DNA of 64,000 nt, from positions 6,583 through 70,582 of the forward strand of contig DYIF01000009.1 of NCBI GenBank assembly GCA_020723765.1, in the 5' to 3' direction. The position numbers and the translations under genes are program-made. Below, piece after piece: positions 21,181 through 39,658 of this stretch (positions within the stretch are counted from its first letter, which is position 1; every line of letters starts with the position of its first letter). Under the pieces are notes generated by a model. It had not been told where the DNA came from and searched no databases. It saw only the letters and a program-made list of their open reading frames with translations. The stretch comes from Elusimicrobium minutum (GTDB taxonomy: Bacteria > Elusimicrobiota > Elusimicrobia > Elusimicrobiales > UBA9959).

Positions 21181-22734
21181 GTGGAAAAACTCATAAGATA
21201 CAAAAAAGAACATATCGGTATTTTAATATTTTCCGCTTTTTTTATTTCGGGATTTTTTTTCGAGGGTTATAAGAAAAGCGTTTATTTTATTCCTTTGTTT
21301 GTTTTTTTGACGGTTTTTTTTTATTTAAAAAACATAAGAGTGGGATTAACATCGGGTTTTGGTTTCATTTTTTTAATGTTATTTTCCCTGTTTTTTGGCG
21401 ATTTTAAATCCGAGTCTTTTTTTTCGATTTCCGTATGGATTCTATGCGTATTTTCGTATTATTTTGTTTCGAATATGAAAGAAGAAGAAAAAAAATATTT
21501 TTTTAAATCTTTTAACGATATTCTGATTTACGCATCGACTTTTATTTCGATTCTCGTATTAATAAATTTTATAAAAGGCGGTAGATTTTACGTTATCGGC
21601 AATAATCCCAATTACGCGGCGATTTTAATTTCGATTTCAATTTTTGCGTGTTTTTTAAGGTTTCTGGATAATAAAAAGATAATTTTTTTGTTTTATACTG
21701 CCGTTTGTTTGGGTGCGATTACGGTTTTAAACTCGAGGAGCGGTTATTTGTCGTTGGTAATTTCTTTTTTTGTTTTATACGCCGATAAAAAAGGACTTAA
21801 AAAAGCTTTATTTGCGCTTTTGTTTCTTCTAATTATTTTTATTCTCTCGCCTTGGGAGATAATTTCGTATTTTCTAAAGGTGGACGATCCTAAAGCGTAT
21901 TACAGGCCTTATATATGGTTAAGTTCGTTAAAAGCCTTCGTTTCAAGCCCTATCTGGGGATTTGGCGGAGGAAGTTTCGAATATGTTTTTGAAAAGTTTA
22001 AATTTCCTTATTTCGACGGTTTTTGCTATTATAATCACTCTTCCGTTCACGCTCACAACGAATTTTTAAATATTGCGGTTGAAAACGGGATGGCGGTTTT
22101 ATTGGCATACTTATTAATTTTAAAAAAATGGTTTTTATCAAAAGAAAAAAACGAGATCTATTTTTCCATTATGATTATTACCGTTTTTTCTTTATTCGAC
22201 ATAGTTTTAAAATTGCCTTTTATTAGGATAATATATTTTTTGTTTTTGGGTTACTACGAGTCTAATTTTAAATACGAAGTGGGATTTAGAAAAATAATTT
22301 TATTAGTCGTTTTGTTTTTTGTGGCGTTTGTTTATGCTATCAAAGACAAAAACTTTAAAAAATATGAAAAAGGGTACGTGGAATTGTCGCAAAATCCGAA
22401 CGATTTTAGGAAATCGGCAGTTTCCGAATATTTGTTTTATCATTATCCTTTAAATCCGATTTTTGCGTTTGAAACGGCCAAGTTTTATGAAAGCGTAGAA
22501 GACTACGATAAAGCTTTGAATTATGCGGAAAAAGCCTTAAAGATTGAGCCCAATTTCAATAACGCTTTGATTATGACGGCGTATCTTAAATTTATTAAAG
22601 GCGAAGCAAAAGATTTTAAAAATTATATCGATAAAATTAAAATCGTCGAAAACGGCGAGCGGAATTTTTATTTTTCATATATTTCGTCTTTGAATTTAAA
22701 TCTTTATTATCGTCTTTTAAAAGAAGTTAAATAA
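21181..22734 (+). CDS. O-antigen ligase-like (Wzy_C) membrane protein with C-terminal TPR, paralog of the preceding gene
   Basis: VHAHNEFLNIAVENGM motif and a C-terminal TPR (AKFYESVEDYDKALNYAEKALKIEPN). It has a GTG start. Confidence 0.7.
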   Translation: MEKLIRYKKEHIGILIFSAFFISGFFFEGYKKSVYFIPLFVFLTVFFYLKNIRVGLTSGFGFIFLMLFSLFFGDFKSESFFSISVWILCVFSYYFVSNMKEEEKKYFFKSFNDILIYASTFISILVLINFIKGGRFYVIGNNPNYAAILISISIFACFLRFLDNKKIIFLFYTAVCLGAITVLNSRSGYLSLVISFFVLYADKKGLKKALFALLFLLIIFILSPWEIISYFLKVDDPKAYYRPYIWLSSLKAFVSSPIWGFGGGSFEYVFEKFKFPYFDGFCYYNHSSVHAHNEFLNIAVENGMAVLLAYLLILKKWFLSKEKNEIYFSIMIITVFSLFDIVLKLPFIRIIYFLFLGYYESNFKYEVGFRKIILLVVLFFVAFVYAIKDKNFKKYEKGYVELSQNPNDFRKSAVSEYLFYHYPLNPIFAFETAKFYESVEDYDKALNYAEKALKIEPNFNNALIMTAYLKFIKGEAKDFKNYIDKIKIVENGERNFYFSYISSLNLNLYYRLLKEVK

Positions 22735-30138: not shown

Positions 30139-32232
30139 ATGAATAGAATAAAAAATCATCCTATTCTGGATGTTAAAGAAAAAAAAGAGATTGTGTTTTA
30201 TTTCGAAGGAAATCCTTTAAAAGCTTATGAAGAGGAGGTTATCTCTTCGGCGTTATTTGCAAACGGAATAAAAATATTCAGTTATCATAAAAAAGATACG
30301 GCTCCTCAAGGAATATTCTGCGCCAACGGCCAGTGCGCTCAGTGCAGCGTCGTAGCCGACGGCCGCGTGGTCAAGGCCTGCGTCAGTAAGGTAAAGGAAA
30401 GTATGAAAATAGAGACTCTTAAAGGGGCCGCAAAGATAAATTTGAAAGAGGAAACGAGTTTTAACTATTCTTCCATAGAAGAAATAGATACGGATGTGCT
30501 TATAATCGGGGGGGGGCCCAGCGGAATGAGCGCCGCCGCCGAAATAAGCAAGTTTAATCTGGATGTCATTTTGGTAGACGACAAGGATAAGTTGGGTGGA
30601 AAACTTGTTCTTCAAACTCACAAGTTTTTCGGCTCGGTCGACGATTGTTACGCGGGAACCAGAGGTATAGAAATAGCTGAAAAATTATACGAAGAACTCA
30701 TAAAATACCCCTCTTTAAAGATATGGACCGAATCCGTTTGTTTCGGAGTTTTTTCGGATAAAAAGATAGGTGTTATAAAAAACGGCGTTTGTTATCTTGT
30801 AAAACCCAAAGTGGCGGTTTTTGCCACCGGAGCCAGAGAAAAAACTCTGTTATTCCAAGGCAATACCCTTCCCGGGGTCTATGGAGCCGGAGCTTTTCAG
30901 ACTCTTGTAAATAGAGATCTCGTAAAACCGTCGGATAAGCTTTTTGTGGTCGGCGGAGGCAATGTCGGGCTTATAGCGGCTTATCACGCATTGCAAGCCG
31001 GAATAAAGGTAGTAGGATTGTGCGAAATATCCGAAAGGTGCGGCGGTTATAAAGTTCACGAGGATAAAATAAAGAGGCTTGGAGTTCCTATCTTTACCAG
31101 ACATACCGTTTTAAAGGTAGAAGGAGATAAATCGGTCGAAAGAGTCGTAATATGCGAGGTGGATGAAAAATTTAATCCGATAAAAGGAAAAGAAAAAGTT
31201 TTCGATGTGGATACCGTTTTGGTGGCGGCTGGATTAAATCCGGTAAACGAATTTTATAATCAGGCTGTGGAATATCAGCTCCCTTCTTTCGTATGCGGAG
31301 ACGCCGAAGAGATAGCCGAGGCTTCTGCGGCTATGTTTAGCGGAAAAATAACCGCTCATAGAGTTCTAAAACACTTAGGTTTTATAACTACCGATGTTCC
31401 AAAGTTTTGGTTTGAGAAGCTTGAAATACTTAAATCCAGACCGGGAAATACTTACGACATGGAACCTAATAAAGAAAATTTTCTTGTCTATCCGGTTATT
31501 CATTGCAATCAGGAAATTCCATGCAACCCTTGCTCTAGCGTTTGCCCTAAAAAATCTATAAAAATGAAAAATAACGATATGAGGTCTTTGCCGGAATTTA
31601 ACGGAGAATGCATAGGATGTTTTAGGTGTTTAATAATATGTCCCGGGCTTGCAATAACCATAGTGGATAAAAGAAAGGATAAAGAAAATCCGATAGTCTG
31701 GTTACCTTTGGAATTAAATTTGGGAATTAAAAAAGGCGATAAGGTTTTAGGGGTAGATTCTGACGGAAAGTTTTTGGGGGAGTTTGAGGTTTTAGACGTA
31801 AGAAATTTTAAAGCTGAAAATACTGTGGCGGTGGCGGTTAAAGTAAAAAACGATATATCTTCTAAAATAACCTCAATAAGGATATTAAACGAAGAAGTTT
31901 TAAAATCATATGCCGGAGAAATATCCTCTTTAAGCGACGAAATCGTAGTTTGCAGATGCGAGAGAGTAAGCCTTGGAGAAATAAGAAAATGGATTAAAAA
32001 AGGGGTTAGAGATTTAAATCAGTTAAAAGCTTTGACCAGAGCTGGTATGGGGGCCTGCGGTTCCAAAACATGCGGAAGTTTGCTTTTGTCGATAATGAAA
32101 GCGGAAGGAGTAAAAATAGAGGATGTTACCGACCTTACCAAAAGACCTCTTTTTATAGAAATAGAGCTGAAATCTTTTGCGGGTTTGGATAAAAAAGAAG
32201 AAGAACCCAAAAACAATTTTAGTAATTTTTAA
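30139..32232 (+). CDS. Multi-domain flavoprotein: 2Fe-2S domain, two-dinucleotide-binding pyridine nucleotide-disulfide oxidoreductase, 2x[4Fe-4S] ferredoxin and BFD-like 2Fe-2S domain
   Basis: CANGQCAQCSV, DVLIIGGGPSGMSAA, FVVGGGNVGLIAA, CNPCSSVCP plus CIGCFRCLIICP, and CRCERVSLGEI...GMGACGSKTC. It resembles fused HcnA/HcnB or the alpha subunit of sarcosine/proline/opine oxidases. Confidence 0.7.
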   Translation: MNRIKNHPILDVKEKKEIVFYFEGNPLKAYEEEVISSALFANGIKIFSYHKKDTAPQGIFCANGQCAQCSVVADGRVVKACVSKVKESMKIETLKGAAKINLKEETSFNYSSIEEIDTDVLIIGGGPSGMSAAAEISKFNLDVILVDDKDKLGGKLVLQTHKFFGSVDDCYAGTRGIEIAEKLYEELIKYPSLKIWTESVCFGVFSDKKIGVIKNGVCYLVKPKVAVFATGAREKTLLFQGNTLPGVYGAGAFQTLVNRDLVKPSDKLFVVGGGNVGLIAAYHALQAGIKVVGLCEISERCGGYKVHEDKIKRLGVPIFTRHTVLKVEGDKSVERVVICEVDEKFNPIKGKEKVFDVDTVLVAAGLNPVNEFYNQAVEYQLPSFVCGDAEEIAEASAAMFSGKITAHRVLKHLGFITTDVPKFWFEKLEILKSRPGNTYDMEPNKENFLVYPVIHCNQEIPCNPCSSVCPKKSIKMKNNDMRSLPEFNGECIGCFRCLIICPGLAITIVDKRKDKENPIVWLPLELNLGIKKGDKVLGVDSDGKFLGEFEVLDVRNFKAENTVAVAVKVKNDISSKITSIRILNEEVLKSYAGEISSLSDEIVVCRCERVSLGEIRKWIKKGVRDLNQLKALTRAGMGACGSKTCGSLLLSIMKAEGVKIEDVTDLTKRPLFIEIELKSFAGLDKKEEEPKNNFSNF

Positions 32233-32242
32233 AGGAGATAAA

Positions 32243-33388
32243 ATGGAAAAATTTGACGTTATAATCGTCGGCGCCGGAAGCGTTGGCGTTCCTCTTTCCT
32301 TGTTTCTTTCCAAAGAGAAATTTAAGGTTTTGGTCTTAGAAAAAAACCCTTCTCCGGGTCAAGGGCAGAATAAAGCCGCAATAGGCGGAATTAGAGCGAC
32401 TCACTCCGATTCTTCTAAAATAAAGACCTGTCTTAAAAGTCTCGAGATATTTTCAACTTGGAAAGAAACCTACGGGGATGATATCGGATGGTTGAAAGGT
32501 GGATATCTGTTTCCGGTTTATAATCCTCAAGACGAAAAAATTTTAAAAGACCTTTTGCTAGTTCAGAAATCTTACGGGCTTAATATTAAATGGATAGATA
32601 AAGACGAGGTATGCGAACTGGTTAAGGGGATAAATAAGGAAGGGCTTTTGGGCGCGACATATTCTCCGGACGACGGTTCCGCTTCTCCTTTGCTTTCCAT
32701 AAACGCTTTTTATTTTAAATCTAAGGAATACGGAACGCAATTTAATTTTAACGAAAAGATAATAGAAGTTTCCAAAAAAGAAAACTTCATTATAAAAACC
32801 GATAAAGGAGACTATGAATCTAAATATTTCATAAACGCATCCGGTTCTCACGCAAAGGCAGTATCTTTGATGCTGGGAGTCGATGTGCCGGTAAAACCCG
32901 ATTCTCATCCGGCCGGAATAACAGAGCCTCTTGAAAGAATTTTGGATCCGATGTTGGTGGATATAAGGAAAGGAGAAAAATCAAAAAACTGTTATTTTTA
33001 TCAAAACTTTGAGGGACAGATAATATTTTGTTTAACGCCCGAGCCTCCTCAATGGGGGTATGATCGAAAAGTTTCTTCCGAATTTTTAAACGAGATATCT
33101 AAAAGAATGTTAAATTTAATCCCGGGACTCAAAGATATAAGGATAAGAAGATTATGGAAAGGTCTATATCCTATGACTCCTGACGGTTTCCCGATAGTCG
33201 ATTTTAATTCCGGCGGTATTGAAAATTATATACTTTGCGTGGGAATGTGCGGACAGGGGTTTATGTTGGGACCCGGCATAGGTTGGGTGGTTTCTCAGGT
33301 TTTAACAGGCAAAAAAACGAAAGACGACGATATGATAATAAACTTTAGGCTTAGCAGAAACTTCACCGGCCAGGAAAAACTGAAATAG
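32243..33388 (+). CDS. FAD-dependent oxidoreductase (DAO family; HcnC / sarcosine-oxidase-beta-like)
   Basis: I chose the ATG at 32243, which follows an AGGAG RBS. FDVIIVGAGSVGVPLSLFLS is the dinucleotide motif, and the gene is paired with the preceding flavoprotein. Confidence 0.75.
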   Translation: MEKFDVIIVGAGSVGVPLSLFLSKEKFKVLVLEKNPSPGQGQNKAAIGGIRATHSDSSKIKTCLKSLEIFSTWKETYGDDIGWLKGGYLFPVYNPQDEKILKDLLLVQKSYGLNIKWIDKDEVCELVKGINKEGLLGATYSPDDGSASPLLSINAFYFKSKEYGTQFNFNEKIIEVSKKENFIIKTDKGDYESKYFINASGSHAKAVSLMLGVDVPVKPDSHPAGITEPLERILDPMLVDIRKGEKSKNCYFYQNFEGQIIFCLTPEPPQWGYDRKVSSEFLNEISKRMLNLIPGLKDIRIRRLWKGLYPMTPDGFPIVDFNSGGIENYILCVGMCGQGFMLGPGIGWVVSQVLTGKKTKDDDMIINFRLSRNFTGQEKLK

Positions 33389-33488
33389 TTTTTTAAAAGA
33401 TTTCCTATCGTTTTTTGCTGCTTGTTCAACATCTTGAAGATAGATAAAATATTAATATTCGAAAGGAATAATATGATATAATTAAATT

Positions 33489-34646
33489 ATGATAAGAAAA
33501 TTAAAAATAAAAAACTTTAGAGGAATTTCAGAATTGTCTTTTGATGCAAAATTTATAAATATATTGGTTGGGAAGAATAATGTCGGAAAAAGTAGTGTTC
33601 TTGAAGCAATAGATTTATTGTTTAACACTCATAAGATTGATAGATATGATAGATATAATAATAGATACGACGATAATATCGATTATATAGTTAAATGTAG
33701 AAGAGATGTCGCGCATGTTGAGGCAATATATTTTAATAATAAGAAAAATATTCTTCAGTTAAAAAAAATTTCCGAAGAAGAGAAAAATATTCTATATGAA
33801 AAAATAAAAGGTGATATAATTTCCAATTTGACAGAAAAATACAGTATAAAACAGGATAAACTATTCGGGGAGAGAGAGGAAAAATATTATAAAAATAGAA
33901 TTATAAAGATAAAAAAGAATAACAAAGAAGTTTTGTTTATACCGAGTTTTATGTATTTTTCATTGGCAGACTATCTTGTACCAGAGAAAGAAATAAAACA
34001 TGGAAAACTGGTTAGAGTTCAGGTTTATGACGATTTCCTAAAGATATACAATAAAACTCATTATCAGATGCTTAAAACATTAAAAAGGAATTCACGTAAC
34101 ATTAGAGTAATCTTGATAAGAGACCTTTTAAGATTAAGAGAAAATAATACTTCAAAAAAGGTCTTTGTTAAAATAGAAAACTTTTTAAGAGAAAATAATA
34201 TTTTGGATGTTAAAAGATTTGGTTTTGATTCAATACTTTATGGTAACGGAATAGAAGTTCCTTTTAATGTATTGGGTGATGGGTTAAAATCTTTTACGAA
34301 AATGCTTTACATTTATTTTGATGATAAAACTAAAAAAAATGTAATACTTATGGACGAACCAGACTCTCATATGCATCCAGGATATCTTAAGGAGTTTATA
34401 AAATTAATAATAAAGTGGTCTATGCTGGAACGGGTTCAATTTTTCATTGCTACTCACAGTTCTGATTTAATAGATTTACTTTTGTCGCAAGAATTTGATG
34501 AAAAATCTAAAAAATACTTAGAAAAAGAACTAAATGTTATAAGACTTTTCAAAACAAAAAATGATATTGATTTGATTAGTACGTATACTTATTCAGATGC
34601 CGTTGAAAGCATTAATGATTTGTTTTTGGATTTAAGAGGGATTTAA
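33489..34646 (+). CDS. ABC-type (AAA_15/AAA_21-like) ATPase, OLD/AriA/GajA-like N-terminal module only
   Basis: LKIKNFRGI followed by Walker A GKNNVGKSS, a signature-like LGDGLKS, Walker B VILMDEPDSHMHP and H-loop IATHS. There is no nuclease domain in this ORF. Confidence 0.75.
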   Translation: MIRKLKIKNFRGISELSFDAKFINILVGKNNVGKSSVLEAIDLLFNTHKIDRYDRYNNRYDDNIDYIVKCRRDVAHVEAIYFNNKKNILQLKKISEEEKNILYEKIKGDIISNLTEKYSIKQDKLFGEREEKYYKNRIIKIKKNNKEVLFIPSFMYFSLADYLVPEKEIKHGKLVRVQVYDDFLKIYNKTHYQMLKTLKRNSRNIRVILIRDLLRLRENNTSKKVFVKIENFLRENNILDVKRFGFDSILYGNGIEVPFNVLGDGLKSFTKMLYIYFDDKTKKNVILMDEPDSHMHPGYLKEFIKLIIKWSMLERVQFFIATHSSDLIDLLLSQEFDEKSKKYLEKELNVIRLFKTKNDIDLISTYTYSDAVESINDLFLDLRGI

Positions 34647-34972
34647 TGCAGAAGGTGGTTATCTTGTGTGAGGGGAAAAAAGATAGTGAGTTTTTGAGGG
34701 AAATATTAAATATTCTTGGGAAAAAAGCTAAGATATTTGACCAAAATGAAAGATATAAAATTAAAAACTTGAAGTTTTGTGAAAACCGTGAGTTTAATAA
34801 ATTTTTACAAAATACAAGTCCATATTCTGTGCTGGTTAAGTCTGAGGCTGGAAAACAAAAAGCAATTAAGCTTTTGGTAAGCATATTAGACTTTCTTATT
34901 GATAATAATTTAAAAACAATTTTATTGCTTGATCTTGATGGATCCACTCTTAATAATCTGGAAAAAAAATAA
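34646..34972 (+). CDS. Small Toprim-like protein (conserved Glu then DxD), apparently truncated at an A8 run
   Basis: VVILCEGKKDSEFL carries the Toprim Glu and LLLDLDGS carries the DxD. The start overlaps the ATPase stop (TAATG). The ORF stops immediately after gaaaaaaaa. Confidence 0.55.
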   Translation: MQKVVILCEGKKDSEFLREILNILGKKAKIFDQNERYKIKNLKFCENREFNKFLQNTSPYSVLVKSEAGKQKAIKLLVSILDFLIDNNLKTILLLDLDGSTLNNLEKK

Positions 34973-35196
34973 ATGATTGTGTTAGAAGGAATAACTATAA
35001 TCTTTCTTGTAAAAAAACTAAACAGGTTAATAATATGATAAACTGTAAAGTTAAAATTTATAAATCTAAAAAAGAAAAAGAAATATATGATTTAGATCTT
35101 GTGCTTTTTGCTAATTCTCTGGAAAAAGAGTTGGAAGTAATGAGTTTGAATCAATTGGTTAAAAAATATAAGGAAGTTATTTCTAGTTGTTTTTAA
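34969..35196 (+). other. Open -1 frame continuation of the Toprim-like ORF (76 sense codons)
   Basis: Reading from A34969 gives INDCVRRNNYNLSCKKTKQVNNMINCKVKIYKSKKEKEIYDLDLVLFANSLEKELEVMSLNQLVKKYKEVISSCF with no stop, in very AT-rich DNA. Confidence 0.45.
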
Positions 35197-35392
35197 TATC
35201 TCAAAACTAATTAAAGCATTTTTGACTTCAGATGAAATGTTATATTATATAAGTAAAGTATATCATAGATATTATATTAAGTTTAAAGAGTTGAATATTC
35301 CCAAAAAATAAGTTTTGTTTTAAAAATCACAAAAATCCATATATATTTTAAGGCTGTTCCGAGGTAAAGTCTTTTTTATAAAGTAGATATAA

Positions 35393-35466
35393 CGGCCTGT
35401 ACGGGATTCGAACCCGTGATCTCCGCCTTGAGAGGGCGGCGTCCTGGGCCGCTAGACGAACAGGCC
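35393..35466 (-). tRNA. tRNA-Glu (anticodon CUC), no encoded CCA
   Basis: The reverse complement is GGCCTGTTCGTCTAGCGGCCCAGGACGCCGCCCTCTCAAGGCGGAGATCACGGGTTCGAATCCCGTACAGGCCG. It folds as a cloverleaf with a 7-bp acceptor stem, anticodon stem CCGCC/GGCGG, loop CTCTCAA and T-loop GGTTCGAATCC. It closely resembles E. coli tRNA-Glu. Confidence 0.92.
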
Positions 35467-35589
35467 TATACCTTCTATTTTATAAAATTTATCCGAATAA
35501 AAAAAATTAACAAATAAAAACGGTTATTTATGTCTCGTTTAATTTTTGATAAAATTATATATATAAGCATTTTTAAGCAAGGAGGCATT

Positions 35590-36493: not shown

Positions 36494-37612
36494 ATGAAAT
36501 ATTTTGTTAAAGCAGTTACTAACAATAAAGACTTAGAAAAATTTATAGAGCTTCCCTGGAAGGTTTACGAAAATTATCCCAATTGGGTTCCGCCTTTAAA
36601 ATCCGAGGTAAGATTTCTTGTCGGTAAAGATAATCCCTTCTGGGAACACGCCGAAAGAGAGATTTTTTTAGCTTATGACGAAAAAGAAAATATAGTCGGA
36701 AGAATAGTTGCGATATCGGATAAACGTCACAACGAATTTCATAACGAAAAAACCGGTTTTTTCGGTTTTTTCGAATGTATAAACGATACCGAGGTTTCCG
36801 GTCTTTTATTCGATTCGGCTTTAAAATGGGTTAAAGAAAAGGGAATGAGTTTGATAAGGGGACCTGTCAACCCGAGCATGAATGACGAGTGCGGTTTTTT
36901 AATAGAAGGTTACGATAAGATGCCTTCCATAATGATGCCCTATACTCCAAATTATTACATAAAACTCTACGAGAACTACGGCTTTAGAAAAGCCAAGGAT
37001 CTCTACGCTTTAATTAAATATACTTCCGAAGGGATTCCACAGAGGATAGAGAGAATGATAGATGGAGTAATAAAAAAAACGGGTGTAAAGATAAGAACTC
37101 TGGATATGAGAAATTTTGAAAGAGATATAAACATATTAAAGGATATATATAATTCTGCATGGGAAAAAAATTGGGGTTTTGTCCCGATGACCGACAACGA
37201 GATCAATATATCCGCAAAAAAACTAAAGGATTTCGTAGATCCCGATTTGGTTTTGTTTGCCGAAGTAAACGGTTCTCCCGTGGGAGTGGCCGTTACCATT
37301 CCGGACATAAACCCTATATTAAAGAAAATGAATGGAGAGCTCAATTTGTTAAATATTTTCAGGTTTTTATATTATAGAAAAAAGATGAAAGGCATAAGGT
37401 CTTTGATAGGCGGGGTTAAAAAAGAATACAGAAATACTGGAATAATAGCCGTACTTTATTATCAAACCGAGATAAACGCCAGAAAAAAAGGATATGAGTG
37501 GTGTGAGTTGGGGTGGAATCTGGAAAATAATGATCTTATAAATAGATTCGATATGGCGATAGGGGGAAAGATTTATAAAAAATATAGAATAGTGGAAAAA
37601 GATATAATCTAA
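36494..37612 (+). CDS. GNAT-like N-acetyltransferase family protein (tentative)
   Basis: The C-terminal region YRNTGIIAVLYYQ resembles an acetyl-CoA-binding R/QxxGxG/A segment. The assignment is weak. Confidence 0.4.
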   Translation: MKYFVKAVTNNKDLEKFIELPWKVYENYPNWVPPLKSEVRFLVGKDNPFWEHAEREIFLAYDEKENIVGRIVAISDKRHNEFHNEKTGFFGFFECINDTEVSGLLFDSALKWVKEKGMSLIRGPVNPSMNDECGFLIEGYDKMPSIMMPYTPNYYIKLYENYGFRKAKDLYALIKYTSEGIPQRIERMIDGVIKKTGVKIRTLDMRNFERDINILKDIYNSAWEKNWGFVPMTDNEINISAKKLKDFVDPDLVLFAEVNGSPVGVAVTIPDINPILKKMNGELNLLNIFRFLYYRKKMKGIRSLIGGVKKEYRNTGIIAVLYYQTEINARKKGYEWCELGWNLENNDLINRFDMAIGGKIYKKYRIVEKDII

Positions 37613-37765
37613 CCAATATTTTTCCGAAATAAATTTTGCGGTTATATAAAGATGGATAGGTTTAAAAAATAACATGGCAATTTGGTGTTGTATCCATTGA
37701 TTTTCAAAATTATTTTTTTAATTTTTGTAATTGTGTGAAATATTTGTGGTTTGGTTTTTGTGGTG

Positions 37766-37795
37766 TTGACAAGCTTTGAAAATATTTAATATAAT
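37766..37795 (+). promoter_or_regulatory. Sigma70-type promoter of the efflux operon
   Basis: TTGACA (37766-37771), an 18-nt spacer and TATAAT (37790-37795). Confidence 0.7.
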
Positions 37796-37797
37796 TT

Positions 37798-37815
37798 ACT
37801 TACCAGTAGGTAAGT
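37798..37815 (+). promoter_or_regulatory. Inverted-repeat operator candidate (TetR-type)
   Basis: ACTTACC-AGTA-GGTAAGT has 7-nt perfect arms. It lies between the -10 box and the ATG of the TetR-domain ORF. Confidence 0.6.
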
Positions 37816-37816
37816 T

Positions 37817-39658
37817 ATGAAAAAAGCAAAAATAACCAGAGAAATAATAACTCAGAAAGCGATAGAGCTTTTCGCTCAAAACGGGATAGACAACGTTTCC
37901 ATGAACGAAATAGCCAAAGAACTCGGAGTAACAAAGCCAGTAATATATTACTATTTTAAAAATAAAGACGAAATGATAAAGTACGCTTTTTCGATGAGAG
38001 TAAAAGAAATGGACAGTATTTATAAAGATATTGAAAGCTCGGGAGATATTAAAGAGTTTATCAAAAGTTTAATAGATAAACACATCTCTTTTTTTTCCAA
38101 AAATTCTTCCAATATCAAGTGTTTTTTTAAGATAATAGATTCAGACAAGAGAAAATATATGATTAAAATGGCAAACGACCTGGTCGATAAAAATAGAAAA
38201 TATGTATACGATAAAATAGAAGAAATGAAAAAAATGGACGAGAAGATTTCAAAAACCGATACCATGGTTATTTCGGATTTTATTTTTTCTATGATTAGCT
38301 ATCTTATTATGGAGAAAAAGATGGATAGAAAAATAGACGTTAAAAGGATATATAAAGTGGTGGATATATTTTTGAAAGGTCTTTCGATTTTTTTATTTTT
38401 GTTTGTTTCGCCTTCCTTTGTAAACTCCCTCGAGGTTACGGCGGATAATATAGTCGATATGGCGTTTGAAAAAAACATATCTCTTCAAAACGCTTACACT
38501 CTGGAAAGCGTTTATAAAGAAAAAATAAACGAGTATTACGGTTCTGCCTATCCTCAAATATCGCTATCTGCTTCTTATACCAAGAACATAGAAAAACCAC
38601 TGGCTTTTTTCGGCGGAAGGAAAACGGAAGTGGGAATGGAAAACAGTTATTCTCTCGCTTTAAATTTAAATCAGGTTTTATGGGCCGGAGGCAAGGTCGA
38701 TACCGCGATTAAAATGGCCGAGATTTACGCGGATATTTCGAAAGAAAATACGAGATTATCTCAAAATTTCGTTAAAAGATCGGTGAAGCAGATTTTTTAT
38801 TCGGTTTTATACGCAAAGGAACTTGTTAAAATACAAAACGATATGCTGAATATATCTAAAGAGCATTTAAAAACGACCGAAGAAAAATTCAAACAGGGTC
38901 TGGCCAGCGATTTAAACGTATTGAGGCAGAAGGTCGAGGTTTCCAATAACGAACCCGCCCTTATAAAAGCGGATAATCTTTATAAAACAGGTTTGTTGAA
39001 TTTGAAAAACCTTTTGGGGCTCGAACTTGACGATTCGATAAATGTTTCTGGGAAGTTCGATTATAAATTTTCGGATTACGATTTTAACGAATTGTATAGA
39101 TCCGCTCTCGTAAACAGGCCGGATTATAAACTTGCGATTTTGAACAAAAAGATGAGCGAAAAGCAACTCAAATTGGAAAAAGCCGGGCATTGGCCGACTC
39201 TTTCGCTTTTTGCCTCAAGACAGTTTTCGGGTCAGAGCGAAACCTCACGTTTTCCGAGCGAAAACTCAAGAGGCTGGAGCATGGCCGCTGGAATTAGTTT
39301 TTCGATGCCCGTTTTTAACGGATTTTCTACGGTATCCAAAATAAAACAGGCCGAGTATAATTTAGAGATATCGGAGCGTAATATAGAAGACTTAAGAAGA
39401 AAAATAAAGATAGAGTTAATGCAGGCGCTTTTTAACATAGAAGAGTCGAAAAAAAGAATAGAAAGCCAGAGAGTCGGGGTGGAAAACGCCGCTAAAGTTT
39501 TAAAGTCGACCGAAGAAAGGTTTAATAACGGTCTTAGCAGCCAGCTGGAACTAAACGATGCGACTCTTGTTTATAACACGGCCCGGCTTTCTTACATATC
39601 CGCGGTTTACGATTATATAACCGCCGTCGTAAATCTTGATTATGTCGTCGGAATTTAA
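37817..39658 (+). CDS. In-frame TetR-family HTH domain (about aa 1-170) continuous with a TolC-like outer-membrane efflux protein (about aa 169-613)
   Basis: The N-terminus IITQKAIELFAQNGIDNVSMNEIAKELGVTKPVIYYYF is a TetR_N domain. From the internal ATG at 38321, which is preceded by GGAG, there is a signal-like MDRKIDVKRIYKVVDIFLKGLSIFLFLFVSPSFVNS and then the two OEP repeats. No stop codon separates the two modules. Confidence 0.8.
   Translation: MKKAKITREIITQKAIELFAQNGIDNVSMNEIAKELGVTKPVIYYYFKNKDEMIKYAFSMRVKEMDSIYKDIESSGDIKEFIKSLIDKHISFFSKNSSNIKCFFKIIDSDKRKYMIKMANDLVDKNRKYVYDKIEEMKKMDEKISKTDTMVISDFIFSMISYLIMEKKMDRKIDVKRIYKVVDIFLKGLSIFLFLFVSPSFVNSLEVTADNIVDMAFEKNISLQNAYTLESVYKEKINEYYGSAYPQISLSASYTKNIEKPLAFFGGRKTEVGMENSYSLALNLNQVLWAGGKVDTAIKMAEIYADISKENTRLSQNFVKRSVKQIFYSVLYAKELVKIQNDMLNISKEHLKTTEEKFKQGLASDLNVLRQKVEVSNNEPALIKADNLYKTGLLNLKNLLGLELDDSINVSGKFDYKFSDYDFNELYRSALVNRPDYKLAILNKKMSEKQLKLEKAGHWPTLSLFASRQFSGQSETSRFPSENSRGWSMAAGISFSMPVFNGFSTVSKIKQAEYNLEISERNIEDLRRKIKIELMQALFNIEESKKRIESQRVGVENAAKVLKSTEERFNNGLSSQLELNDATLVYNTARLSYISAVYDYITAVVNLDYVVGI

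Follow-up and report, generated by a model that had tools for sequence, protein, structure and literature searches.

Immune systems that combine an ABC (ATP-binding cassette) ATPase with a Toprim-like effector encoded by a separate gene are an established type. In PARIS, the effector AriB is held by hexamers of the ATPase AriA until a phage anti-restriction protein triggers its release, whereupon dimers of AriB cleave tRNA-Lys (PMC11464382). AbiL, RloAB and MADS3-4 have been grouped with PARIS (PMC11464382; PMC13064643), and the OLD nucleases and Gabija are fused forms of the same combination (PMC10568477). Here we describe a cassette of two genes, an ATPase gene (gene A) followed by a small gene (gene B), in a 64,000-nucleotide stretch of contig DYIF01000009.1 of Elusimicrobium minutum; this entire stretch is referred to below as the window, and all positions are counted along it. 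The cassette lies in an islet of unusual composition (33389-35392) next to a tRNA-Glu gene. The reading that we favour, at a probability of roughly 55%, is that of a horizontally transferred ATPase/Toprim-like cassette with a PARIS-like mode of action, the effector gene of which is switched by an adenine tract, and which has recently spread between sub-lineages of its host.

Gene A (33489-34646, plus strand) encodes an apparently intact ABC-type ATPase of 385 amino acids, as judged from Pfam, PADLOC and the invariant positions of its family. The three motifs that the earlier note on this DNA had read from it, GKNNVGKSS, ILMDEPD and ATHS, are all present as described. The protein matches the Pfam families AAA_15 (E-value 3.7e-24) and AAA_21 (1.1e-23), and its top matches among the PADLOC models are AbiLi (8e-28), AriA (1.1e-27) and PDC-M38A (1.3e-27). 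The match to PDC-M38A is end to end, with residues 2-383 of A aligned to positions 5-366 of a profile of 367. Weaker PADLOC matches were obtained for PtuA, GajA and Old, the models of the latter two matching two short stretches only, and comparison with solved structures returned only short, motif-level matches to Ts OLD and PtuA. The closest homologues of A are 31-34% identical to it. Among 17 family members, the Walker A residues G28..G33-K34, the signature-like G263-D264-G265, and E290, H296-P297 and T322-H323 are invariant. The C-terminal tail, D381-L-R-G384 followed by I (34629-34643), is likewise invariant in 17 relatives of 26-35% overall identity, and may represent a docking element for B. 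These matches identify A as a predicted compact ABC ATPase of the AAA_15/21 clade, to which OLD, AriA, AbiLi and PtuA belong.

Gene B starts at 34646 and is coupled to gene A by a one-nucleotide overlap (TAATG); this coupling and the motifs ILCEGKKD and LLDLDGS had been noticed previously and are all present. In the window, the open reading frame (ORF) of gene B (34646-34972, plus strand), which carries the Toprim-like core residues E9, G10, D13, K65, E67, G69, D96 and D98, ends after 108 codons, directly past a run of eight adenines (A8, 34962-34969; GAA AAA AAA TAA). An open -1 frame runs on to 35196 (34969-35196, plus strand), and a single added A joins both frames into a protein of 183 residues, of which residues 109-183, including the conserved F155, L159 and E160, derive from the second frame and align with the archaeal partner proteins described below. 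The exact 183-residue protein is found in public data (P0001), labelled 'hypothetical protein', in an Elusimicrobiales metagenome-assembled genome (MAG). Seventeen contigs, drawn from many samples, encode it at this same locus, and four others encode the 108-residue form. Over its full length, including the part behind the frameshift with F155, L159 and E160, the 183-residue form can be aligned with the proteins that partner distant homologues; the intact product is therefore the protein of 183 amino acids (~21 kDa), and the allele in the window is a truncated one. Both proteins had earlier been considered markedly short, possibly indicating a miniaturised or distinct variant: the distinctness stands, while the extreme smallness of B is that of the A8 truncation.

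The tract reads A9 in 10 of the 14 public loci (L001-L010) and A8 in the remaining four (L011-L014), as it does in the window. These public contigs represent two host backbones, one identical to that of the window (L012) and a second one comprising L001-L011, L013 and L014. On the second backbone, the A8 contigs (L011, L013 and L014) differ from the A9 contigs by 0-2 single-nucleotide polymorphisms (SNPs) in 1.2-5.3 kb and by the one-base indel. Sequences that are otherwise identical thus differ in homopolymer length, and their reading frame changes accordingly; A8 is present on both backbones, and the window's own backbone was seen with A8 only (window and L012). Two further A8 tracts inside gene A are invariant in the 13 loci that cover the gene, which argues against random homopolymer miscalls. 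Since A8 specifies 108 amino acids and A9 183, the tract would act as an on/off (or high/low) switch for the putative effector, and the data are consistent with a tract that is prone to slippage and thereby toggles this gene. Furthermore, the A8 allele places the heptamer A_AAA_AAA directly before the stop codon (by inspection). This heptamer with a stop immediately behind it is a classical site of slippage, and either a -1 ribosomal slip there or one A added by RNA polymerase would give precisely the 183-residue product. A stimulatory RNA structure 3' of the slippery tract was also considered; only a weak hairpin was found (z -1.83, with 9 of 200 shuffles folding as well), and it is not counted as evidence. 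The switching of genes through homopolymer length is well known across prokaryotes (PMC2831843).

The A8 allele may also be read in a simpler manner, namely as a fixed loss-of-function mutation in a dead pseudogene remnant, with no switch involved. Indeed, with the truncation at residue 108, F155, L159 and E160 are lost together with the conserved C-terminal subdomain that contains them, the backbone of the window has been seen with A8 only, and both alleles are listed in no sample. However, the 2-kb islet contains no lesion besides the tract and is otherwise identical to the A9 copies, so any inactivation must be extremely recent; moreover, A8 also occurs on the other backbone, in contigs otherwise identical to A9 contigs, and a -1 slip at A_AAA_AAA directly before the stop codon recreates the exact 183-residue product (by inspection). 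We consider a dead remnant possible, if somewhat doubtful.

To return to the favoured cassette, relatives of B were sought by a word search with a four-sequence profile, which retrieved 25 proteins, and by an exhaustive hidden Markov model search of 1.84 billion representatives, which defined a family of 230 representative clusters, nearly all of ~200 amino acids and matched end to end. The nearest homologues are 31-37% identical to B. Across 103 diverse members, E9, G10, D13, K65 and D96 are invariant, while L63, E67, G69, D98, L159 and E160 are nearly so. Some of these members match described models, of which PDC-M38B is the PADLOC model matched most often (up to 35 of the 103, best 3.8e-8), followed by mad4 (12, best 6.5e-6) and RT-Toprim_I-C (10, best 1.2e-6). 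In Pfam, OLD-like_TOPRIM is matched by 10 members (best 1.9e-4), and DUF3226 (PF11536) by 37 (best 4.6e-6), the latter over the N-terminal ~85-100 of its 208 positions; the members inspected score 18.9-26.8 bits against a gathering cut-off of 27, and B of the window has no DUF3226 match. No match to DUF4435, RloB, DUF4276, AriB or AbiLii was detected among the 103 members (Pfam E<=0.01; PADLOC AriB E<=1e-3), and DUF4435 does not match the 183-residue form at E<=10. Of the family comparisons proposed in the earlier note, those of A with AAA_15 and AAA_21 were thus positive, those of B with DUF4435 and RloB negative, and that with DUF3226 remained below the cut-off. The B family is mostly archaeal and, by these searches, devoid of an above-threshold Pfam or PADLOC assignment.

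In order to compare B with the Toprim domain directly, the B-family profile was aligned by hhalign with a profile of twelve fused OLD-family nucleases. Residues 1-104 of B aligned with the Toprim region of the full-length OLD profile at 74.9% probability, and with the Toprim part alone at 84.5% (E 7e-6), the Toprim-like profile that had been predicted for the small ORF. In the alignment, CEGKxD lies opposite VEGKSD, the GG of KSEGGK opposite the GG of OLD, and DLD opposite DSD, so that the Glu and the DxD are in register. Control alignments with the OLD ATPase part, the A family and a reversed Toprim alignment gave 0.7%, 0.1% and 0.1%, respectively. AlphaFold2 modelling of the 183-residue form with the family alignment (pLDDT, the predicted local distance difference test, 90.7; predicted template modelling score 0.87; pLDDT of the 108-residue form 85.9) yielded a four-stranded alpha/beta core, behind which three strands and two helices make up a C-terminal subdomain. 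In this model, E9 ends the first strand (4-9) and D96-x-D98 follows the fourth (90-96), i.e. a small alpha/beta domain with a Glu after its first strand and a DxD after a later one, as expected of a Toprim sequence. At the profile level, the N-terminal ~105 residues of B thus represent a Toprim-like putative nuclease core, and the C-terminal ~75 a separate beta-sheet/helix subdomain.

When the pair is compared with the systems introduced above, PARIS (OLD class 4) is alike in that a split AAA_15/21 ABC ATPase is followed by a separate gene for a Toprim-type effector. In contrast, AriB is a ~35-kDa DUF4435 (PF14491) protein whereas B, with 183 amino acids, matches neither DUF4435 nor AriB, and AriA measures ~55 kDa, compared with the 385 amino acids of A. 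The pair is not a PARIS system, as it has no DUF4435 effector; the effector family of B is shorter than AriB and possesses its own C-terminal subdomain. AbiL of Lactococcus and RloAB of Campylobacter share the two-gene ATPase plus Toprim/OLD-like abortive-infection layout (PMC13064643). The best PADLOC match of gene A is indeed AbiLi (8e-28); however, this match is no better than those to AriA or PDC-M38A and so does not discriminate, and neither B nor its family matches AbiLii or RloB (PF13707), which places the pair outside AbiL and RloAB. The OLD nucleases (P2 Old and Ts OLD of class 1, GajA of class 2, and effectors of the retron Ec67/Eco8 type) share the ATPase clade and an aligned Toprim core, the retron-type effectors being represented by weak matches to RT-Toprim_I-C and to the retron Ec67 model. 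Yet OLD and GajA are fused proteins, whereas the cassette is encoded on two polypeptides and has no GajB helicase, reverse transcriptase or non-coding RNA; furthermore, the Toprim core of B contains a 25-30-residue insert, in addition to its own C-terminal subdomain. As its two genes form separate ORFs and the islet and its immediate surroundings contain no helicase ORF, the pair belongs neither to OLD class 1 nor to Gabija. Membership of MADS (MAD3/MAD4) was likewise rejected: the NCBIfam MAD3 model reaches 46.9 bits where the cut-off is 420 and aligns with residues 1-50 alone, the mad4 matches are weak, and no other mad genes occur in the islet. Lying outside PARIS, AbiL, Gabija and OLD, the pair fits the distinct variant envisaged in the earlier note.

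The nearest named system is PDC-M38, likewise a two-gene system, the ATPase of which falls into the same length class as A and matches A end to end. PDC-M38B matches the B family more often than the other PADLOC models do, but its match to the 183-residue form of the window is weak and partial (9.2e-4, residues 43-127), and its profiles are longer (219-293 positions). Unlike PDC-M38, the cassette described here does not lie within a BREX, DISARM or restriction-modification system. A search of the literature library found no paper naming PDC-M38 or DUF3226.

The composition of the islet sets it apart from its surroundings. Positions 33389-35392 have a G+C content of 0.250 and contain 22 CpG dinucleotides (11.0 per kb; observed/expected ratio 0.76), compared with a G+C content of 0.363 and 3191 CpG (49.9 per kb; ratio 1.54) for the entire window, and with 49.5 and 44.2 CpG per kb in the genes flanking it on the left and right. 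When all 2-kb segments of the stretch were ranked at a step of 100 nucleotides, the islet was the minimum for both G+C content and CpG ratio, lying ~3 standard deviations below the mean on each. The scarcity of CpG (~19 by hand count in 33481-35400, 21 on recounting) and the raised A+T content, both of which had prompted attention to the islet, are therefore borne out. The CpG ratio of the host itself, 1.54-1.55 at 36% G+C, is strikingly high: genus-level relatives of similar G+C content show 0.36-0.48 (L095, L098, L099, L103 and L104), and L096 shows 1.04, which amounts to a large change of dinucleotide preference among related lineages.

The islet had been thought to end exactly at the 3' end of tRNA-Glu. 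This holds for its composition, but not for the foreign DNA itself, as a remnant of a host gene intervenes. The tRNA-Glu(CTC) gene of the host (35393-35466; ARAGORN) is the only tRNA gene in the window and lies on the minus strand, so that its 3' end faces the islet. Relatives were found by a metagenome scan with the neighbouring DAO-like protein (75-81% amino acid identity), and share the gene order M16 peptidase, SoxA-like, DAO, a ~250-residue SLT-type lytic transglycosylase, tRNA-Glu(CTC), HtpX, orf372 and TetR/TolC (synteny in L096, L098, L103 and L104). Comparison of the locus in these genus-level relatives, as had been proposed, revealed neither A nor B, and thus no sign of the pair residing there with host-like composition in all relatives; the SLT gene occupies the spot. 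In the window, the 3' end of this gene is left at 35234-35308 (plus strand), recognised by tblastn with the SLT proteins of the relatives and by synteny: its last 24 codons (35234-35305) are 50-62% identical over 24 amino acids (E 4e-4 to 2e-3). The cassette therefore appears to have replaced most of the SLT gene between the DAO-like oxidoreductase gene and tRNA-Glu. Since the remnant begins at 35234, the foreign insert must end near 35200-35233 and is estimated to extend from ~33389 to 35233 (~1.85 kb), comprising genes A and B together with ~100 nucleotides upstream and ~40 downstream.

The earlier note regarded the 3' end of the tRNA as a classic insertion hotspot, while remarking on the lack of an integrase. 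The lack is confirmed, with no integrase-like ORF on either strand of the islet; the hotspot is not of the tRNA-integrase type. No direct repeat of the tRNA end was found at the far boundary and, with no integrase, no att-like repeat and the SLT remnant between insert and tRNA, a tRNA-integrase island is ruled out. When genome contigs were searched with HtpX for the empty site, the outcome was uninformative: the nearest genomes were only 69% identical and lacked synteny, and no tRNA was close by at eight Elusimicrobia loci. The tRNA gene itself matches that of one relative (L096) at 72 of 74 positions and is oriented oppositely to the copies in L096, L098, L103 and L104. It is bracketed by a 14-nucleotide inverted repeat (35374-35387 and 35474-35487; 13 of 14 positions complementary), the right arm of which reads FYFIKF, the C-terminus of the relatives' SLT protein. 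This repeat may mark a small inversion, or could have arisen by chance in AT-rich DNA.

Homologous pairs occur elsewhere. In six loci in which both genes are visible (P0004, P0009, P0015, P0008, P0086 and P0020), an ATPase gene is followed, after 0-3 nucleotides, by a gene for a protein of 198-217 amino acids with no Pfam family; a seventh contig (P0097) begins inside B, so its upstream gene lies off the contig. The contigs come from Altiarchaeales and DPANN-like organisms. Genes for TBP, proteasome, Rpp14, exosome subunits and ribosomal proteins of archaeal type mark them as archaeal, and some are named Altiarchaeales, Micrarchaeota or 'archaeon'. The homologous cassettes have a G+C content of 0.25-0.32 and a CpG observed/expected ratio of 0.49-0.77, like the islet. 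Considering its aberrant composition, its absence from genus-level relatives and its archaeal nearest homologues, the islet is judged to be foreign, horizontally acquired DNA, the ultimate source of which was probably an archaeal or other low-G+C gene pool.

A comparison of the two host backbones adds a recent chapter to this history. They differ at 81 of 1212 positions on the left (DAO gene) and at 44 of 963 on the right (HtpX), a divergence of 5-7%. Between the last left difference (33319) and the first right one (35586), a block of 2266 bp (33320-35585), comprising the cassette and the tRNA together with small portions of the genes on either side, is free of substitutions between the backbones. 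At a flank divergence of ~5.5%, ~125 differences would be expected in this block; the only differences inside it are the length of the A tract and one SNP (33431) confined to L011. The block extends 69 nucleotides into the DAO gene and, on the right, beyond the tRNA and into the first part of the HtpX region. The most likely explanation for this pattern is very recent spread between host sub-lineages by homologous recombination through the flanks, and it fits a gene-specific sweep rather than site-specific integration.

A number of minor features of the locus may be added. The AT-rich leader upstream of gene A (33389-33488, plus strand) presumably bears the promoter; a promoter scan found no more sites than in shuffled sequences, and a terminator scan found none. 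A two-codon mini-ORF (ATG ATA TAA, 33473-33481), with a GGA motif upstream, lies 7 nucleotides ahead of gene A. The 12-mer AATAATATGATA around it (33467-33478) is repeated exactly at 35029-35040, where it sits at the internal ATG (35035) of a 53-residue ORF corresponding to residues 131-183 of B. Elsewhere in the window, the only homopolymers of at least nine nucleotides are a G9 at 30508, in the SoxA-like gene, and a T9 at 21314; the SoxA-like product is called as 697 amino acids in the window and 696 on the other backbone. Finally, at ~37500-37880, after orf372 and before the TetR/TolC-like gene, the identity between the window and the second backbone (L001) falls from ~94% to 50-69%. The independent contigs L001-L003 all end at this point, with L001 carrying a minus-strand gene fragment instead, and a second variable or repeat-bounded site may lie here.

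Several observations weigh against the reading of the cassette as a switched, PARIS-like defence module. With regard to the effector, the 183-residue form on its own yields marginal profile matches (RT-Toprim_I-C 3.8e-4, PDC-M38B 9.2e-4, Pfam Toprim 0.16 and OLD-like_TOPRIM 0.15). Its model searched by Foldseek against PDB and BFVD, and the 108-residue model against PDB, returned no Toprim, OLD, GajA or AriB among the top 50 matches, the best E-values (1.8e-3 and 1.1e-2) belonging to generic alpha/beta folds; sequence searches of PDB with B, singly or as a profile, gave nothing below E 0.2. The Toprim assignment therefore relies on profile and motif evidence, and of the earlier proposal of an ATPase and Toprim-like split pair, the profile homology to OLD Toprim is upheld, but a structural match to Toprim is not. 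With regard to the switch, none of the samples listed has both A8 and A9; the difference could be a single mutation that moved between backbones together with the islet or, less likely, an assembly error. With regard to the context, the homologous pairs in the loci inspected lie amid housekeeping genes or beside transposases rather than in recognisable defence islands. The position of the pair, between HisRS and nitroreductase genes, is the same in two Altiarchaeales MAGs (L157, 4001-5931; L165, 8001-9769), which suggests vertical retention there. An AAA_14/DUF4143 ATPase gene was also observed on the far side of HisRS in these two contigs. Lastly, PDC-M38 is one of 145 untested PADLOC candidates proposed through guilt-by-embedding, and HEC-01, a candidate of the ATPase and TOPRIM type, gave no protection on testing (bioRxiv 10.1101/2024.01.29.577857).

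The genomic context raises the question as to whether the pair could instead be a selfish addiction module of the toxin-antitoxin kind, in which B is a toxic nuclease and A its ATP-dependent antidote, and which is kept because it is costly to lose, with no role against phages. The compact, translationally coupled two-gene layout would fit such a module, as would the very recent spread between backbones and the solitary position of the pair outside defence islands. In three archaeal loci, a transposase gene (DDE or rve) adjoins the pair, and only one locus (P0004) has suggestive neighbours, an SLFN-like helicase gene and a MazG-like gene. Inactivating slippage is, moreover, a typical fate of toxin genes, and PARIS itself behaves as a type II toxin-antitoxin pair (PMC13064643). 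On the other side, the characterised AAA_15/21 and Toprim pairs with positive tests all act in phage defence (PMC11464382), and the toxin-antitoxin and abortive-infection roles are compatible, so that this alternative differs from a defence role mainly in its selective rationale. We consider a purely selfish module unlikely. A DNA-repair or recombination accessory of archaea (an SMC/RecF-like ATPase with a RecR-like Toprim protein), transferred by chance and now decaying in the bacterium, might be suggested by N-terminal matches of A to RecF (2.3e-10) and RecN, by the RecR-like size and Toprim-like core of B, by the syntenic HisRS-nitroreductase position and mostly housekeeping neighbours of the archaeal pairs and by the frameshift of B in the window, but it is improbable, as the RecF and RecN matches cover the P-loop region only (residues 1-53) and fall far under curated cut-offs, B has none of the helix-hairpin-helix and Cys4 motifs of RecR (by inspection), the patchy distribution (230 clusters among the 1.84 billion representatives) fits accessory genes rather than core repair, and the best full-length ATPase matches are defence-system models.

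Given these considerations, a switched defence cassette is the reading that we carry forward, and the cassette is a probable anti-phage module by analogy with the systems discussed. We infer this defence role from that analogy and from the weak similarity to the candidate PDC-M38. In the mechanism that we propose, A would sense a cue and act as a sensor or scaffold that holds B inactive, as AriA does with AriB, and an infection cue would release or activate B. Activated B, as a putative metal-dependent nuclease, would then cut nucleic acid (tRNA or DNA) and stop the infected cell. The A8 allele would supply a 108-residue product devoid of the C-terminal subdomain, and A9 the full 183-residue effector. 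Of this scheme, the two-gene architecture, the intact ATPase motifs and the Toprim-like acidic constellation are shown or supported by profiles; a physical A-B complex, the nuclease activity of B, its target and an anti-phage effect are inferred. It is conceivable, if rather unlikely, that the mini-Toprims and compact ABC ATPases constitute a distinct, mainly archaeal and undescribed OLD-like split class, with the dose of the effector in this host set by the slippery A8/A9 tract.

The most useful new facts concerning this locus are the truncation at the A tract, the public 183-residue allele, the displaced SLT gene and the block of zero divergence. Should the pair prove inactive or play no defensive part, the locus would be an ordinary accessory-gene insertion. 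In natural metagenome data, it presents a candidate defence cassette that has replaced a host gene and swept across diverged strains with no sequence change, and a single-base slippage that appears to switch a putative toxic effector. An active pair would extend the ATPase and Toprim immune systems by a very small branch that is mostly archaeal, and would offer a compact model (385 and 183 amino acids) for the control of a Toprim nuclease by an ABC ATPase. If the effector is indeed dosed through A8 and A9, be it by phase variation or by -1 ribosomal or transcriptional slippage at A_AAA_AAA-UAA, the host population would be able to hedge immunity against the cost of a toxic nuclease.

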